Below are positions 2,634 to 40,059 of a DNA stretch of 64,000 bases, piece by piece (the stretch's first letter is position 1; every line of letters begins with the position of its first letter). The DNA is from Anaerolineales bacterium (GTDB lineage: Bacteria; Chloroflexota; Anaerolineae; Anaerolineales; E44-bin32), in NCBI GenBank assembly GCA_034430395.1, contig DAOUEQ010000012.1, positions 6,651 to 70,650 of the forward strand, in the 5' to 3' direction. Made by a program: the position numbers and the translations under genes. The notes beneath the pieces were generated by a model. It worked only from the letters and a program-made list of their open reading frames with translations, had not been told where the DNA came from and did not search any database.

Positions 2634-4709
2634 TCAGTCCTCTTCCTGCTTACTAATCTCCCTCGTGCGCGCGGCGATGAGCTCCTCCGCCACATGTGAA
2701 GGGACAATTTGATAGTGGCTCAATGACATTGAGAACACTCCGCGCCCACCAGTCATCGACCGGATGTCGGTCGTGTAACGTTGGATCTCGGCCAGCGGAA
2801 CTTGCGCGGTAACCACGCTCCGCCCTCGCTCGGTCTCCATCCCCTGGACGCGTGCTCGACGGGTGTTCAGATCCCCGAGGACATCGCCCATGTTCGCTTC
2901 CGGGACGGTGATGCGAAGATCCATGATCGGCTCAAGCATGACCGGGGCTGCTTTGTTCATTGCCTGTTTAAATGCTTCCCGACCGGCGACTTCAAAAGCC
3001 ACAGCCTTTGAGTCGACCGGATGCTCCTTGCCATCAACAATGAGGACCCTGACTTTTTCGACTGGATAACCGGCGATTACACCCTGCTTCATTACGCCCT
3101 TCACGCCCTTCTCGATGGCAGGCATATAGCCGGAAGAAATTGAGCCCCCGAAGACTTTATTAACAAATTCGAACTGTTCCTCTTCTAGTGGCTCGATATC
3201 CATGTGGACTTCTGCAAACTGTCCTGCGCCGCCCGTCTGCTTCTTATGTCGGTACTCGGCATGACCGGTCTTTGTGATCGTCTCCCGATAGGGAACTCGG
3301 GGCACTTCCGTATTGAGACCGACCTGGAACTTGGCATCTGCCTTACGTATGGCGACGTCGATATGCTGATCTCCCATCCCCTGTAAAATGGTTTGGTTTG
3401 TGCTTGGTTCCTGATGCCAGGATAGTGTTGGGTCCTCTTCGCAGAGGCGTGTCAGTGTGGGGCTGATCTTCGTTGAGTCCGCTTGAGTCTTTGGCGATAT
3501 CGAAACGGAGTAAAGTGCATTGGGGTATTCGGGCTCCGCGACTGTAAGTGGATGCCCTTTGTCGCCGAGGGTGTCGCCTGTTGCCGTCTCACCCAGCTTG
3601 GCGACCGCACCGATGTCCCCGGCATGGAGATTCTTAACTGCGAATTGTTCCTTACCCCGCAAAATATATAATGAACCCAATCGTTCCTCGGTTGCTTTAG
3701 TATGGTTCCACACTCGGCTGTCCGCAGAGAGAGTTCCCGAAAGCACGCGCATGTAGGTGAGCTTTCCCACGAATGGGTCAGCTGTTGTCTTCCACACTTT
3801 GACAACCAGAGGTCCGGAATCGGAAGCTTCTATGATCTCTTCTCCCGATGCGCCCTGTGCCTTCACCGGTTCAGCGTCAGCAGGGGAGGGGAAGAGTTCA
3901 ACCATCGCCTCCATCAGCGGTACTATACCTGTCGTTTTACCGGCTGCGCTCACGAAAACCGGTATAAACCGACCGGCGCGTACCACCGATTTAAATCCTT
4001 TAGAAATTTCTTCAGCGGATAGATCTTCACCTTCGAGGTATTTCTCAAGCAGAGCATCATCTCCCTCCGCCGCAGCTTCAACCAGAGCGATGCGAGCCTG
4101 TTCCGCCTGCTCTTGATATTCGTCGGGAATATCATCCATTGCTTCCCCCTCAGCCGGACGAGCTTTCATATTGAAGAGATCAATGACCCCTTTGAGTTCA
4201 CTCTTCTCCCCCCAAGGAAGCTGGACAGGGATGAAAGTTGCATTCGCGGAGAGATCGCTCGCCGCAGAGAGAGCCCTCTGGAAGTTGGCATTGTCGCGAT
4301 CCATCTTGCTAATGACAACAAACCGCGGCAGATTGAACGCTTCACAATACTCCCAGACGATTTCCGTGCCCACCTCGACTCCGGCAACAGAATCCACGAG
4401 GACAACTGCCGCATCGGCCACGCGTATTGTTGAGATCACTTCACCGATGAAATCCGTGTATCCAGGTGTGTCGAGGATATTTAGCTTATGCTCTTTGAAC
4501 TCAATAGGGAGGAGCGAGGTGGAGAGTGAGAGCGTGCGACGGATCTCCTCATCTTCAAAGTCGGAGACCGTATTCCCGTCCTCGACCTTCCCCATACGGG
4601 TGATCGCACCCGTGAAGAAAAGCATCGCCTCTCCCAGGATAGTCTTTCCGCCCCCGCCATGGGACACAAGGGCGATGTTACGAATAAATTCAGTTGCGTA
4701 TTCCTTCAT
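2634..4709 (-). CDS. elongation factor G-like translational GTPase (EF-G paralog)
   Basis: Full five-domain EF-G architecture by eye. G motifs: SHGGGGKT (G1), DTPGYTDF (G3), SKMD (G4). The C-terminal part reads ...YRHKKQTGGAGQFAEV.... The ORF opens at TTG 4745. ATG 4709 (MKEYATEF...) has an upstream AAGAAGGA. Confidence 0.85.
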   Translation of the reverse strand: MKEYATEFIRNIALVSHGGGGKTILGEAMLFFTGAITRMGKVEDGNTVSDFEDEEIRRTLSLSTSLLPIEFKEHKLNILDTPGYTDFIGEVISTIRVADAAVVLVDSVAGVEVGTEIVWEYCEAFNLPRFVVISKMDRDNANFQRALSAASDLSANATFIPVQLPWGEKSELKGVIDLFNMKARPAEGEAMDDIPDEYQEQAEQARIALVEAAAEGDDALLEKYLEGEDLSAEEISKGFKSVVRAGRFIPVFVSAAGKTTGIVPLMEAMVELFPSPADAEPVKAQGASGEEIIEASDSGPLVVKVWKTTADPFVGKLTYMRVLSGTLSADSRVWNHTKATEERLGSLYILRGKEQFAVKNLHAGDIGAVAKLGETATGDTLGDKGHPLTVAEPEYPNALYSVSISPKTQADSTKISPTLTRLCEEDPTLSWHQEPSTNQTILQGMGDQHIDVAIRKADAKFQVGLNTEVPRVPYRETITKTGHAEYRHKKQTGGAGQFAEVHMDIEPLEEEQFEFVNKVFGGSISSGYMPAIEKGVKGVMKQGVIAGYPVEKVRVLIVDGKEHPVDSKAVAFEVAGREAFKQAMNKAAPVMLEPIMDLRITVPEANMGDVLGDLNTRRARVQGMETERGRSVVTAQVPLAEIQRYTTDIRSMTGGRGVFSMSLSHYQIVPSHVAEELIAARTREISKQEED

Positions 4710-4869
4710 GGATTTGGGATCCTTCTTAAAGGTTTTATAGATCAACGAATTCTAAAGGAGGAGAGGGGTCTTGTAAAGACAAAACCCACAAAGATGCCAT
4801 TTTCGTAGCCATTCAACCACTTTTTAGGCATCGTTTTGGTTACAACTGAGAAGCGACACCATCTTCCCT

Positions 4870-4902: not shown

Positions 4903-4965
4903 GTACCGCTCATCTCTTGATGCAACAGGATGATGTTACAATCGGCTTGGATAGTGGAGGGAATC

Positions 4966-5454
4966 ATGCAGCTGATCAACCAATATTCTTTTCCTTTCCT
5001 CGCCGGGGTTATCCTGCTCGTCCTCGCTGGCATTCTTCTGCGTAAAGGGGGAACGGATGGATTGCTCGTTCCACTGGCAGCAATGATTATGGGATTCCTT
5101 TTCGCATTCTGGCTCTTCAGCCCGGGGACGAGCGCCGAAACACCCGATGCAACCAAGGTCGAGGAAGTTATCGGTGCAGGGAAGGCTGTTCTCCTTGAAT
5201 TCCAGAGCCCCTATTGACTGGCGTGCATGGCCGCCAAACCCATCGTGGATGGGATCGAGAAGCAGCATGCAGACACCCTGAACGTGATCCGTGTAAATGT
5301 ACAAGACGACGCCATGCGCCCCCTGATGAAAACCTACGCCTTCCAGTTCACGCCCACCTTTGTTTTGTTTGACGCAGTGGGAGAGGAAATCTTCCGCACT
5401 GTCGGCGCGATTGACCCCGAAGCGATCGAAAAAGCCCTGGCTCCAATCCCGTGA
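4966..5454 (+). CDS. membrane-anchored thioredoxin-fold protein with in-frame TGA at the first active-site position (candidate U-x-x-C selenoprotein; otherwise a pseudogene)
   Basis: Track ORFs 4930..5217 and 5227..5454 share one frame. They are separated only by TGA(5215-5217) CTG GCG TGC. Read-through gives LLEFQSPY-[TGA]-LAC-MAAKPIVDG...TPTFVLFD, which matches Trx WCGPC...cis-Pro. GGAGGG lies 5 nt before ATG 4966. An N-terminal TM helix is present. Confidence 0.55.
5224..5271 (+). promoter_or_regulatory. candidate bacterial SECIS-like stem-loop
   Basis: The outer helix is TGCATG(5224-5229)/CATGCA(5266-5271). The apical hairpin is CCCATC-GTG-GATGGG (5239-5253). The loop starts 27 nt after the TGA and begins with G. 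Confidence 0.35.
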
Positions 5455-6023
5455 TCCGTCGTCTCATATTGGAACTGCGATATCTTCGTGATAGAACCCC
5501 GTGGGATACGGGGATCTCACCGCCCGAACTCTTGAAGTATCTTGCGGAGAGTTCCCCAGGTCACGCGCTGGACCTCGGTTGCGGGACAGGTACGAATGCC
5601 ATCACCTTGACGCAGCATGGTTGGCAGACCGTCGGGGTGGATCTGTCAGCGCTGGCAATTCGAACCGCCCGCTGCAAAGCTCGTCAAGCTGAACTTGAAA
5701 TTGACTTTCGGCGGGAAGATGTGGCGCGCCTCGCCTCTATTGAAGGCCCGTTCGATTTCGCCCTCGATATCGGCTGCTTCCACTCGCTAAGTCCCGCAGG
5801 GCAGCAAAACTACGTCCAAAACATAGCTCGCGTCCTCAAACCTGGTGGGACCTACTTGATCTACACCTGGCTCGCCGGCGAAGGGGATACATCGTCCAAA
5901 AGAATAACCGAAGCCAATATCTCATCCCTGTTCGAGCCCTACTTTGAAATCCGGACCTTCAAACAAGGTACTGAACGGCACCGCGCTTCCGCCTGGGTTC
6001 AGATGGTACGAAGACCAGAATGA
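5451..6023 (+). CDS. class I SAM-dependent methyltransferase
   Basis: Motif I is ALDLGCGTGTNAITL, followed by the acidic loop VGVDLS and a post-I/II pattern LKPGGTYLIY. The GTG start overlaps the upstream stop (GTGA). Confidence 0.75.
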   Translation: MIRRLILELRYLRDRTPWDTGISPPELLKYLAESSPGHALDLGCGTGTNAITLTQHGWQTVGVDLSALAIRTARCKARQAELEIDFRREDVARLASIEGPFDFALDIGCFHSLSPAGQQNYVQNIARVLKPGGTYLIYTWLAGEGDTSSKRITEANISSLFEPYFEIRTFKQGTERHRASAWVQMVRRPE

Positions 6024-6943
6024 GCCGTGTCCTCCTCCTCTTCATGGATGGCGTGGGGCTTGGCGCAAGTGATCCCGCCTGCAACCCTTTTGCCACTTGT
6101 GATATGCCTGCACTCGAGGCACTACTCGGCGGTCGAAAGCTCGTAATAGAAACGGCGCCTCATATCGGCGAAGTGGCGACGCTGCTCGCAATTGACCCCA
6201 CACTTGGACTGCCCGGCACGCCGCAATCAGCCTCCGGACAGGCTGCTTTACTCACGGGCCGAAATGTTCCGCAGGAAATTGGCGAGCATTACGGTCCAAA
6301 GCCGAACCCGCCCATCCGTCAAATCCTTCGTGAGGGAAATATCTTCTCCATCGTTACGCATCTCGGCCGGAAAGCTGCACTGCTCAACGCTTACCCTCCC
6401 CAATACTTCGAGGCCATCGACCGGGGACACCGTCTCTATTCTGCCATCCCCCTCGCCGTGACAGCCGCCGGGTTACCGCTGATGACCGCCAAAGACCTAC
6501 AAGAAGGTCATGCGCTCTCTGTCGATTTCACAGGGGAAGGCTGGGCTGCGAGACCTGAATTTCCACCGGTTCCAATTTATTCGCCATCTGATGCGGGTGC
6601 AAAACTCGCTCAATTAGCAGCCCAGTACGACCTCGCTTGGTTCGATTTTTGGCCCAGCGATTACGCCGGTCATCGTCAGGACATGAACTCCGCGATCGCT
6701 CTCCTGGAGACATTCGACGCCGTCCTCTCCGGTTTGCTGCAAACATGGGAAAGTAACCAGAACCTAATCGTTCTGACGTCTGATCATGGCAACCTGGAAG
6801 ACCTCAGCCAGCGTGGGCATACACGCAACCCGGTGCCTGCGCTTCTAATTGGCCCCGCAGAGCTTCGCCGGCGATTTGCGGAAGATCTTGAAAATCTCAC
6901 CCACATCGTTCCTGCGATATATAGAACGCTTTTCCCCGCGTAG
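6020..6943 (+). CDS. alkaline-phosphatase-superfamily metalloenzyme (cofactor-independent phosphoglycerate mutase/phosphopentomutase-like)
   Basis: The N-terminal LLLFMDGVGLG and C-terminal LTSDHGNLED...GHTRNPVP match the metal-ligand pattern of the iPGM/ApgM 'metalloenzyme' domain. There is an ATGA overlap with the upstream gene. Confidence 0.6.
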   Translation: MSRVLLLFMDGVGLGASDPACNPFATCDMPALEALLGGRKLVIETAPHIGEVATLLAIDPTLGLPGTPQSASGQAALLTGRNVPQEIGEHYGPKPNPPIRQILREGNIFSIVTHLGRKAALLNAYPPQYFEAIDRGHRLYSAIPLAVTAAGLPLMTAKDLQEGHALSVDFTGEGWAARPEFPPVPIYSPSDAGAKLAQLAAQYDLAWFDFWPSDYAGHRQDMNSAIALLETFDAVLSGLLQTWESNQNLIVLTSDHGNLEDLSQRGHTRNPVPALLIGPAELRRRFAEDLENLTHIVPAIYRTLFPA

Positions 6944-7092
6944 TCGTAGGTCTTAACCTGCCCATCCTTAGCGCTAAGCGCGAGCACACCGCCGGGATCT
7001 TTGAAATATTCCGACCGAAGCGTATTCCGATACCCAATCGTAAATCATCCTTGCTATACTTAGAACGGTGTTTTGAAGAATTAGCTGAGGAG

Positions 7093-7695
7093 ATGCGAGT
7101 GGAAACCCGATTGAGTGACCAAGAGAAACACATCCTTCTCGATCTTGCCCACCAATCCATCGTGGCTGCGGTTCATCAGGATCACCCCCATCGCCTCGAT
7201 CTTGACTCGCTGCCGAACCGCTTGCAGCAACCTGGGGCATCCTTCGTGACGCTGACCCGCAGCGGTCTTCTACGCGGCTGCATCGGCACTCTCAAGCACG
7301 AAATCCCACTTGCCCAGGATGTAGCGTTACGGGCGCGTGCCGCTGCGACCGACGATCCCCGCTTCCCCCCACTTCAAATTGACGAGATCGAGGACACGGA
7401 GATCGAAATCTCGGTTTTGACAACACCACAACCTCTTGAATACACCTCGGCAGATGAACTCCTCACCCTGCTTGTCCCTGGACTGGATGGTGTCACCATC
7501 ACCCATGGTCTCAAAAGAGCGACCTTCCTGCCCCAGGTTTGGGAGAAAGTGAATGGTCCCGAACACTTTCTCTCGATGCTCTGTCAAAAAGCTCAGCTTC
7601 CGGCCGATGCCTGGAGACGTGGCCAGCTGGAGATTTCAACCTATCGAGTGGAGAGTTTCCACCGCTCCCCACCGAAAAGAACTGCCGAGGAATAA
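7093..7695 (+). CDS. AMMECR1 domain protein
   Basis: GASFVTLTRSGLLRGCIGTL contains the AMMECR1 LRGCIG signature. The ORF opens at TTG 7051, and the start is uncertain (ATG 7093 or GTG 7099). Confidence 0.8.
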   Translation: MRVETRLSDQEKHILLDLAHQSIVAAVHQDHPHRLDLDSLPNRLQQPGASFVTLTRSGLLRGCIGTLKHEIPLAQDVALRARAAATDDPRFPPLQIDEIEDTEIEISVLTTPQPLEYTSADELLTLLVPGLDGVTITHGLKRATFLPQVWEKVNGPEHFLSMLCQKAQLPADAWRRGQLEISTYRVESFHRSPPKRTAEE

Positions 7696-36118: not shown

Positions 36119-36187
36119 TAGTTAGAAAATTCCGAAGAAAACCATATCCGATTAAATAATGTTATACTGCTAATAACATTTACGATT

Positions 36188-36282
36188 AGACGCACGGGGA
36201 GTCCAACCGGACTGAGAGGAGGGCTACGACCCTCGACCCGCAGAACCTGATCCGGATCATACCGGCGTAGGGATGGCAGCAC
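36188..36282 (+). promoter_or_regulatory. TPP (THI-box) riboswitch aptamer
   Basis: ACGGGGAGTCC...CTGAGA...ACCC...GAACCTGATCCGGATCATACCGGCGTAGGGA matches the THI element consensus almost perfectly. It is followed by the hairpin GCCACTCC(36301-08)/GGAGTGGC(36317-24), which covers the AAGGAG SD. Confidence 0.9.
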
Positions 36283-36331
36283 ACGATGCACCAAACAGCA
36301 GCCACTCCCTGCCCAAGGAGTGGCATTTTCC

Positions 36332-36985
36332 ATGCTACATCGTACGCTCATCCTCACAAACGGAGAACTCCTAAATGGCCCCGCGCTCAAGGCGCGCATA
36401 GACGCCTGGAACCCCGATCAGGTGATTGCCGCAGATGGCGGCAGCCGCCACGCGTCCACACTTGGATTAAGGATCGACCTTGTAGTTGGTGACCTCGATT
36501 CAATTAAGGTCTCACAGCGCGAGACCCTCCGTGCGCAAGGCACGCAATTCGAACATTTTAATGCCCAGAAGGACGAGACCGACCTCGAATTGGCGCTGCT
36601 GCATGCCGTCGATCAAGGTGCAACCGAAATTGCAGTCGTCGGCATTATCGGAGACCGGCTGGATATGGTTCTGGCGAATATGCATCTCCTCACGCTCAAT
36701 GCGTTATCCCTAATCCGCGTTGAACTCTGGCTTGGGCGCCAAACCGCCTGGCTGATTCGCCCTCCCGGCGAGGAGTTTGAGGGCGCTCCGGGAGATACGC
36801 TAAGCCTGGTCCCCCTAAAAGGGGATGTAACCGGTGTTACCACCAACGGACTGGCCTATCCGCTGCAAGGGGAGAAGCTTTTCTTCGGACCTACCCGGGG
36901 TGTCAGCAACGTAATGGAAAAGGATGTTTGCCGCGTGGATTTGGAAGCAGGGATATTGCTTGCGGTGCATACTCGGGCGGTGTAG
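36332..36985 (+). CDS. thiN: thiamine pyrophosphokinase
   Basis: ILTNGE...VIAADGG...VVGDLDSI...QKDETDLELAL...VVGIIGDRLDMVLANMHLL is the TPK pattern. The alternative start GTG 36320 lies inside the SD-sequestering helix. Confidence 0.8.
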   Translation: MLHRTLILTNGELLNGPALKARIDAWNPDQVIAADGGSRHASTLGLRIDLVVGDLDSIKVSQRETLRAQGTQFEHFNAQKDETDLELALLHAVDQGATEIAVVGIIGDRLDMVLANMHLLTLNALSLIRVELWLGRQTAWLIRPPGEEFEGAPGDTLSLVPLKGDVTGVTTNGLAYPLQGEKLFFGPTRGVSNVMEKDVCRVDLEAGILLAVHTRAV

Positions 36986-39294: not shown

Positions 39295-40059
39295 ATGAGT
39301 AAGATAAGCGTCGAGCTCCGGGGGATTAGCAAGACCTTCCGTGCAGATGGTCGATCAGTTAGGGCTCTCGATGATGTTGCCTTGCGCATCGAGGAGGGCG
39401 AGTTTCTCACGCTGATCGGTCCCTCAGGGTGCGGGAAGAGTACACTTTTTAACCTGGTCGTGGGGTTGTTAGACCCCGACGAGGGGGATATATATCTCGA
39501 AGGGGAAATCTGCCCCAATCGGATTGGCCGGGTAAGCTACATGCCCCAGCGTGATCTTCTACTCCCCTGGCGGAACATCCTCGACAATGTGATCATCCCT
39601 CTTGAGCTTGCGGGGGTGCCGCGGGGAGAAGCGCGCGCACGCGCTCGGTCGATGCTGCCTCTCTTCGGACTGGAGAGTTTCGCCAACAGCTTCCCTGGCG
39701 AGCTCTCGGGCGGTATGCGCCAGCGAGCTGCGCTACAGCGCACGATTCTCGCCGAGAAGAGGATCTTGCTCTTAGACGAACCATTCGGAGCCCTCGATGC
39801 GCTCACCCGCCGTGAGCTTCAGGACTGGCTACTCGAGGTTTGGCGTCGTTTCGGTCAAACCGTCATTTTCATCACGCATGATGTTGAGGAAGCCATATAC
39901 CTCGGCGATCGCGTCGCCGCGATGAGCCCTCGACCAGGGCGAATTGTCAAGACGGTCGAGGTCCCTTTGCCTCGCCCGCGCCGGCAAGTTATGATCACCG
40001 AACCGGTCTTCTCCTCGCTCCTTGCCGAGCTCCTCGAAGCGCTCGGGGTAACGACCTAG
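39295..40059 (+). CDS. ABC transporter ATP-binding protein (ThiZ-like)
   Basis: Walker A is GPSGCGKST, the signature is LSGGMRQR, Walker B is ILLLDEPFGALD. Confidence 0.85.
   Translation: MSKISVELRGISKTFRADGRSVRALDDVALRIEEGEFLTLIGPSGCGKSTLFNLVVGLLDPDEGDIYLEGEICPNRIGRVSYMPQRDLLLPWRNILDNVIIPLELAGVPRGEARARARSMLPLFGLESFANSFPGELSGGMRQRAALQRTILAEKRILLLDEPFGALDALTRRELQDWLLEVWRRFGQTVIFITHDVEEAIYLGDRVAAMSPRPGRIVKTVEVPLPRPRRQVMITEPVFSSLLAELLEALGVTT

Follow-up and report, generated by a model that had tools for sequence, protein, structure and literature searches.

A predicted UxxC thioredoxin-fold selenoprotein gene with a compact, covarying SECIS-like hairpin in Anaerolineales

The DNA analysed here (hereafter the window) is a stretch of 64,000 nucleotides from a metagenome-assembled genome of an Anaerolineales bacterium (GCA_034430395.1, contig DAOUEQ010000012.1). 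At positions 4966 to 5454 it carries a gene for a membrane-anchored protein of the thioredoxin fold, which is interrupted by an in-frame TGA codon and which we interpret below as a selenoprotein gene. It is followed by a methyltransferase gene and preceded, on the opposite strand, by a gene for a paralogue of elongation factor G (EF-G). In the list of open reading frames (ORFs), the thioredoxin gene appears as two in-frame pieces, 4930..5217 and 5227..5454, and the NCBI, JGI and Logan gene calls each cut the locus into two ORFs. The codons after the TGA (5215-5217) are CTG, GCG and TGC, the last of which (5224-5226) is the codon of the second Cys of a CxxC-type motif. An earlier note, drawn up from the letters of the window alone, had already described these two same-frame pieces with TGA-CTG-GCG-TGC between them and had proposed a candidate selenoprotein; its coordinates are exact when compared with the sequence and the ORF list. 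As start codon, ATG 4966 was favoured over ATG 4930 because the orthologues begin at the equivalent M-x-x-x-N-Q-Y-S. The coordinates of the features are collected in Table 1.

With Cys in the place of the TGA, the read-through product matches the Pfam families Thioredoxin (PF00085, residues 67-158, 37.3 bits for a cut-off of 23.5) and Thioredoxin_2 (PF13098, 35.7 bits for a cut-off of 27). In phmmer comparisons with solved thioredoxins, VLLEFQSPY-U-LAC is aligned with VLVDFWAPW-C-GPC, and FTPTF with the cis-proline segment SIPTL (TPT on IPT). Residue U84 falls on the first Cys of CGPC in this alignment, and the TGA therefore occupies the position of the attacking Cys of CxxC, in agreement with the by-eye alignment to TrxA on which the earlier note was based. 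The second Cys and the cis-proline of TPT, which the same note regarded as kept, are conserved throughout the family: C87 is invariant, and P130, T131 and F132 are invariant or nearly so. Fifteen homologues were recovered in full length (about 160 residues) by a protein search, and EFQSPYC-x-x-C is present in each of them.

The structural evidence comes from the AlphaFold model of a Cys orthologue with 52% identity (P0001; mean pLDDT 80.8). This model has a thioredoxin fold in which the CxxC motif starts a helix (84-99), and it presents two long N-terminal helices (8-27 and 31-51). Its best PDB matches in Foldseek are classical thioredoxins, with target-normalised TM-scores of 0.7-0.8. The window protein scores 43.1 bits against the thioredoxin equivalog TIGR01068, under the cut-off of 96.8, and its scores against TIGR00385 dsbE (20.2 for a cut-off of 123 bits) and the ResA model NF002854 (17.1 for a cut-off of 170 bits) are both far under. 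Judged from these profiles and from the orthologue model, the window protein is a predicted thioredoxin-fold protein and not an orthologue of TrxA. None of the selenoprotein-specific models of NCBIfam was matched over its cut-off, the sole hit being seleno_TsoB (16.5 for a cut-off of 805 bits), and no dedicated NCBIfam selenoprotein model exists for the UxxC thioredoxin clade of Anaerolineales.

Hydropathy and the P0001 model both place two hydrophobic helices in the N-terminal part of the protein (Table 1). The N-terminal membrane anchor announced in the earlier note is thus present, albeit as a pair of helices instead of a single one. Basic residues are concentrated in the loop between the two helices, with 2.8 Lys or Arg per about 8 residues, compared to 0.05 for the N-terminus (hydropathy and charges were evaluated for 61 members of the family). 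According to the positive-inside rule, the most likely topology is N-out and C-out, which would place the thioredoxin domain outside the cytoplasmic membrane.

Two scans, restricted to one genome per GTDB species, led to the identification of 133 distinct loci. Their labels are almost without exception Anaerolineales, Anaerolineae or Chloroflexota, and the most distant of their proteins are about 37% identical to that of the window. The codon that follows QSP[YF] is TGA in 101 of these 133 loci and TGC or TGT in the remaining 32, and nothing else was found at this column: TAA, TAG, TGG, CGA and GGA are all absent (0/133). The earlier note had suggested that orthologues be examined for Cys or for another in-frame TGA at this position, and these are the only two states observed. 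On the basis of these alignments, the TGA pattern at codon 84, with Cys in all other cases, is far beyond chance. In the 101 genomes, the in-frame UGA is flanked by conserved coding sequence on both sides. Moreover, third codon positions are the most variable ones 3′ of the TGA, which indicates that this part is translated in frame. When the first 83 loci are placed on a neighbour-joining tree, selenocysteine (Sec) is the inferred root state and the Cys forms are scattered, corresponding to about 10 Sec-to-Cys changes.

Two database proteins of this family do not show either state at the column, and for both of them the DNA carries TGA at the same codon. The protein P0017 (DNA record L001) ends exactly at ...EFQSPY, and P0009 (DNA record L002) has Trp at the column, followed by a long nonsensical tail. 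In L002 (353-1204; JGI 3300062715, Ga0599240_0044544), the JGI call used TGA = Trp and passed through the true stop. The result is a spurious protein of 283 residues, in which the thioredoxin is fused to methyltransferase sequence read out of frame. The record L001 (1-235; NCBI GCA_003704815.1, RCND010199180.1) is a contig of 878 nt that looks like a chimera. Its AT-rich 5′ part codes for an unrelated peptide and runs abruptly, in mid-sequence, into the thioredoxin gene of Anaerolineales, so that the N-terminus of P0017 is false.

Outside codon 84, TGA behaves as an ordinary stop codon, as the earlier note had stated. Of the 52 longest non-overlapping ORFs of the window, 18 terminate with TGA, as do 73 of 99 TGA-form genes of the family with a readable stop, and TGA is the stop codon of the thioredoxin gene itself (5452-5454). 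UGA thus has two meanings within a single gene, and only the internal one is accompanied by the hairpin described below. The bases around the internal TGA are identical in the matching NCBI contig (CAYUKV010000016.1, GCA_964445415.1) and in the independent Logan assemblies of SRR9700687 and SRR8556427, and the same TGA is present in a second public record, L001. Its recurrence in independent assemblies of other runs shows that it is not an assembly error, which answers the concern about a sequencing error expressed in the earlier note.

Between the TGA and position +60, the alignment of all loci is free of gaps. Columns 25-30 and 34-39 of this alignment, corresponding to window positions 5239-5244 and 5248-5253, form the hairpin CCCATC-GTG-GATGGG (5239-5253), whose loop begins 27 nt 3′ of the UGA. 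The main pairing statistics were obtained from 63 distinct TGA-form rows, with the 18 Cys-form rows first aligned as a control. In the TGA forms, 95.2% of the stem cells are paired. At pair 28-36, 34 rows have A-U, 27 have G-C, one has G-U and one is unpaired; when all 101 TGA forms are considered, the counts become 61 G-C, 38 A-U, one G-U and one A-C. The pair 27-37 is C-G in 60 rows, U-A in two and G-C in one, and further compensatory variants of the stem (CCU/AGG and CCGG/CCGG) are present among the TGA forms. On a tree of 65 TGA forms, the pair 28-36 underwent 11 state changes, and the number of separate switches from A-U to G-C is about 9-11, so that the counts do not reflect one inherited event. 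This pair links an Asp codon, at its silent third position, to the first position of an Ile/Val codon, and selection at the protein level therefore cannot explain the covariation. The loop bases G31 and U32 are invariant in the TGA forms.

The Cys forms present a different picture, with 51% of the stem cells paired, a value equal to that of the shuffled control. Silent-site diversity inside the hairpin ranges from 0.03 to 0.12 in the TGA forms, with the exception of the covarying column (0.50) and the third loop position (0.26), and from 0.58 to 0.70 in the Cys forms. Outside the hairpin, it is 0.27-0.71 in the TGA forms and 0.39-0.75 in the Cys forms. These comparisons show a constraint at the RNA level that acts on the hairpin only when the codon is TGA. 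The apical hairpin recognised in the earlier note is thus kept with compensatory changes in the TGA forms and has been lost in the Cys forms. A few Cys forms (L056, L051 and L058) keep a fully or mostly paired hairpin, e.g., CCGGTC-GTG-GACCGG in L056, which is consistent with a recent Sec-to-Cys conversion that preceded the decay of the Sec insertion sequence (SECIS).

The bacterial SECIS (bSECIS) consensus comprises an apical loop of 3-9 nt and a stem of 4-16 bp, located 16-37 nt from the UGA, with a minimum free energy ≤-7.5 kcal/mol (PMC13188914, Fig. 2 legend). The hairpin of the window lies within all four ranges (loop GUG, 6 bp, 27 nt and -7.9 kcal/mol for 5235-5258). The spacing and the loop G, on which the earlier note had based its comparison with the bacterial SECIS model, thus agree with the published model. 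The outer helix TGCATG/CATGCA (5224-29/5266-71) that the note had drawn around this hairpin fared less well: 52.6% of its cells are paired family-wide and it is specific to the close relatives of the window, so we rejected it as a part of the SECIS. An extension of the stem to 10 bp was discarded as well, the added pairs holding in subgroups only, and no conserved lower stem was found within the first 60 nt after the TGA.

A pattern scan with the pyridoxal phosphate motif of SelA (GDKLLGGPQAG) produced Chloroflexota among the matches listed, and in L181, which is from Anaerolineales, the ORF is clearly a SelA (TIGR00474, 544 bits for a cut-off of 268). The best 80 matches of a scan seeded with Chloroflexota SelA include SelA in at least four TGA-form assemblies (JASFRG01, JAIWHF01, DAOUTT01 and DUEW01), and a protein search adds a fifth one, JBARSI01. 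Over their whole length, the SelA homologues of these at least five assemblies are 42-46% identical to E. coli SelA. Three of the assemblies (JAIWHF01, DAOUTT01 and JBARSI01) come from the clade of the window, with thioredoxin identities of 83-87%. Of the sel genes for which the earlier note proposed a search, SelA was found in these assemblies. Further SelA candidates (P0160 and P0164) come from related sequencing runs. Two Cys-form assemblies among the matches listed, CAWEKL01 and JASFLN01, also contain SelA, which is compatible with the selenoprotein claim. Some Chloroflexi have the Sec-decoding trait (PMC5322559), and the Dehalococcoidia include genomes very rich in selenoproteins (PMC13326102). 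Selenocysteine decoding appears to be widespread in Anaerolineales.

Two side observations were made on the assemblies with selA. The bin JAIWHF01 is labelled 'Methanosarcinales archaeon isolate JL_US_07_21' and contains the thioredoxin locus together with a bacterial selA (L009 and L305); the thioredoxin locus of L009 shows 83% identity to the window protein and the same synteny, and the bin is probably contaminated or mislabelled. In addition, a conserved 132-residue ORF with no Pfam hit is present in the window's clade (L367 3900-4298, L369 5606-6004 and L371 5621-6019). Its end overlaps the start of selA by at least 4 nt, suggesting that it may be co-translated with selA.

The present data show the structure of the gene, its Sec/Cys column and its fold, a covarying hairpin that is specific to the TGA forms, the normal use of TGA as a stop and the presence of SelA in TGA-form relatives. 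On this basis we interpret 4966-5454 as one gene that encodes a SECIS-dependent UxxC selenoprotein of the thioredoxin fold, and we assign to this interpretation a probability of about 0.93. SelB binding, the actual incorporation of selenium, the topology and the substrate are the parts that we infer. In the proposed mechanism, the ribosome would arrive at the UGA (5215-5217), and the hairpin (5239-5253) would act as a bacterial SECIS, bound by the elongation factor SelB carrying Sec-tRNA(Sec). Selenocysteine would then be inserted in place of termination, and translation would run on to the stop at 5452-5454. In the resulting product, Sec would be the attacking nucleophile and Cys87 the resolving residue of the U-L-A-C motif, and the probably outward-facing thioredoxin domain would reduce or exchange disulfides or other chalcogen bonds.

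Some results weigh against this interpretation. Searches of the 64-kb window and of the fetched flanks, by tblastn with E. coli SelA, SelB and SelD and by ARAGORN, detected no selA, selB, selD or tRNA-Sec, and none of the related assemblies searched gave selB, selC or selD, including within 6 kb of selA. The single-sequence fold energy of 5215-5290 is no better than that of shuffles (z = 0.11), and no Rfam family matches the site at either gathering or permissive thresholds; the hairpin is supported by comparison and not by thermodynamics. The G and U of the loop also open a conserved Val codon, as its first and second bases, and loop conservation alone therefore says little. The incorporation of selenium at U84 is a prediction from sequence comparison.

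The alternatives were examined in the light of the same data. The division of the locus by the NCBI, JGI and Logan gene callers, and the presence in the window of an ATG 9 nt after the TGA, could be understood if the TGA ended a short membrane peptide and if the 75-codon ORF starting at this ATG (5227) were either dead or separately translated without the nucleophile, the locus being then a pseudogene or a true pair of genes. However, ATG 5227 is missing from most other TGA forms, which present C-T-x-x-K-P there, and the interruption occurs at the identical codon in 101 genomes, always as TGA and never as TAA, TAG or a frameshift. Both halves are under coding constraint down to about 37% identity, and the TGA-specific covarying hairpin would have no role in such a locus. 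The 101/133 conservation pattern in practice already refutes this explanation, which we regard as highly improbable. An error affecting a TGC or TGT codon of an ordinary Cys thioredoxin is conceivable insofar as TGA is one base away from both and the source is a metagenome-assembled genome. Yet the context of the TGA is identical in the NCBI contig and in the two Logan assemblies (SRR9700687 and SRR8556427), and TGA is also found in 100 other genomes, in short- and long-read assemblies; the likelihood of such an error is close to nil.

Another explanation would be that near-cognate decoding or a local recoding, independent of the Sec machinery, puts one of the standard amino acids (Trp, Cys or Gly) at the UGA, in which case the hairpin would only be a generic stimulator of read-through. 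The failure to find selA, selB, selC or selD in the window or the fetched flanks is in line with this possibility, as is the translation of one orthologue with TGA = Trp by the JGI pipeline, but this translation also passes the real stop and gives the nonsensical 283-residue fusion mentioned above, and TGA is a normal stop in the window. Furthermore, the sole sense codon at the column is that of Cys, which together with Sec forms the hallmark Sec/Cys pair, whereas TGG, CGA and GGA, each one step from TGA, are never seen. The position and loop of the hairpin match the SelB-type SECIS model, and SelA co-occurs in at least five TGA-form assemblies. We consider this explanation very unlikely and retain the SECIS-dependent selenoprotein as the preferred interpretation of the locus.

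Table 1. Coordinates of the features of the thioredoxin locus, in window positions, with the basis of each assignment.
Feature	Position	Strand	Remarks and basis
Shine-Dalgarno-like GGAGGG	4956..4961	+	4 nt 5′ of ATG 4966; read off the sequence
Complete predicted selenoprotein gene, membrane-anchored thioredoxin-fold protein	4966..5454	+	162 codons, Sec = codon 84; translation, Pfam, 133 orthologous loci
Two predicted transmembrane helices joined by the short basic loop RKGGTDG	4990..5118	+	residues ~9-25 and 33-51; hydropathy, orthologue model
In-frame TGA = U84, attacking residue of the U-L-A-C redox motif	5215..5217	+	alignment to solved thioredoxins
TGC = resolving Cys C87 of the UxxC motif	5224..5226	+	invariant across all aligned family members
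Putative SECIS core: 6-bp stem CCCAUC/GAUGGG, loop GUG	5239..5253	+	comparative covariation
CCC = cis-proline P130 within FTPTF	5353..5355	+	aligned with the IPT cis-Pro of solved thioredoxins
TGA = true stop of the same gene	5452..5454	+	shares the letters GTGA with the GTG start codon (5451-5453) of the downstream gene
Methyltransferase gene of the TPMT/TehB type, S-adenosylmethionine (SAM)-dependent, translationally coupled	5451..6023	+	Pfam matches

The gene order around the thioredoxin gene is conserved, with the EF-G-like gene on the opposite strand followed by the thioredoxin gene, the methyltransferase gene and a gene of the metalloenzyme superfamily. The methyltransferase (5451-6023) matches Methyltransf_25 (77 bits), TPMT (PF05724, 50.5 bits for a cut-off of 26) and TehB (PF03848, 38.8 bits). 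Its gene lies directly 3′ of the thioredoxin gene in 73 of the first 83 loci, in Sec and Cys forms alike, and in 73 of 130 loci the stop and start codons overlap as NTGA, the ORF that follows counting at least 120 codons. This overlap suggests that the thioredoxin and the methyltransferase, a conserved operon partner, may be co-expressed. A functional link between them is speculation: the methyltransferase has no export signal and accompanies both the Sec and the Cys forms, and the whole neighbourhood is syntenic. An apparent fusion in L055 (3001-4044, CAWGMC010000004.1), in which the thioredoxin ORF continues in frame into the methyltransferase, was rejected as evidence for a functional link because the methyltransferase part is frame-shifted around the SAM-binding motif; it is probably a long-read indel artefact. 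We also considered a more ambitious proposal, namely that Sec is ancestral and dominant (about 76% of the species-level genomes) in an outward-facing, membrane-anchored thioredoxin across Anaerolineales and that the translational coupling with the methyltransferase marks a module devoted to chalcogens (Se/Te) or to a specific redox substrate of the envelope. If this proposal, which we find unlikely, were true, the Sec protein would be not merely another thioredoxin in which Sec and Cys are interchangeable.

Among the other genes of the neighbourhood, 2634-4745 on the minus strand encodes the EF-G paralogue, a protein of 703 residues with all EF-G domains that is divergently oriented relative to the thioredoxin gene and is not SelB; it is kept at the same position in most related loci. 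The metalloenzyme-superfamily protein (6020-6943), akin to phosphopentomutase and cofactor-independent phosphoglycerate mutase, has its gene in ATGA overlap with the methyltransferase gene, and 7051-7695 encodes an AmmeMemoRadiSam system protein A (TIGR04335, 188 bits). Further away, a thiamine pyrophosphate (TPP) riboswitch (RF00059, 66 bits) is located at 36185-36290 on the plus strand, about 30 nt 5′ of the ORF 36320-36985, and an ORF similar to ATP-binding cassette (ABC) ATPases (39295-40059), located 3′ of the riboswitch, suggests an ABC transporter cluster. A screen of the window for a second selenoprotein gene, combining TGA, hairpin and flanking ORF, gave three hits, all of them in non-coding frames of other genes. 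A homology scan for Sec/Cys columns in all loci produced clean U-to-C columns at the thioredoxin site only, the rest being swamped by antisense-frame artefacts.

Anaerolineales are abundant and little cultured in sediments, soils and wastewater sludge. The present data point to a probably outward-facing Sec-thioredoxin that would have been kept over long evolutionary time in this order, with about 10 separate replacements of Sec by Cys. In the literature on selenoproteins of Anaerolineae and Chloroflexota, we found no description of this thioredoxin family, and BSepDB may list it under thioredoxin. Annotation is directly affected, the gene being split in the NCBI, JGI and Logan calls and falsely fused in one JGI record, with no NCBIfam selenoprotein model. 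The 101 natural variants represent a data set for a compact SECIS with compensatory changes, usable to train or test predictors of bacterial SECIS. The family leaves the understanding of selenoproteins unchanged: it has good support, but it adds to a class that is already well known and comes as no surprise.

Thioredoxin-fold UxxC proteins are the commonest class of bacterial selenoproteins. Within it, a thioredoxin selenoprotein (PF00085, UxxC) has been shown experimentally in the case of Treponema denticola Trx (PMC13188914, Table 1 therein). The window protein resembles PF00085 selenoprotein thioredoxins by its family and fold, by Sec in place of the attacking Cys, by the existence of Cys homologues and by a putative SECIS just 3′ within the coding sequence. 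It differs from them by its two-helix anchor and probably outward-facing domain, and by its motif, which is SPY-U-[LIMVG]-x-C in the window family and W-U-G-P-C in these proteins. The window family forms a separate clade, so far seen only in Anaerolineales/Chloroflexota. Predicted UxxC selenoproteins of PF13098, which go by the name 'thiol:disulfide interchange protein', and selenoproteins of the TlpA/ResA/DsbE-like type (cd02966) are also listed in PMC13188914. The window protein shares with them the character of an extracytoplasmic or membrane-associated UxxC oxidoreductase of the thioredoxin fold, as predicted here, as well as the match to PF13098. It is set apart from the larger TlpA/ResA type by profiles and structure, the best structural matches of the orthologue model being classical thioredoxins. 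Finally, the hairpin is similar to the SECIS of the bSECISearch and E. coli fdhF type by its location inside the ORF, the G followed by U at the start of the loop and the right spacing. It departs from the bSECIS consensus by being very compact, with a GUG triloop (a pentaloop if the closing C-G pair opens), and by having neither a conserved lower stem nor an Rfam model.

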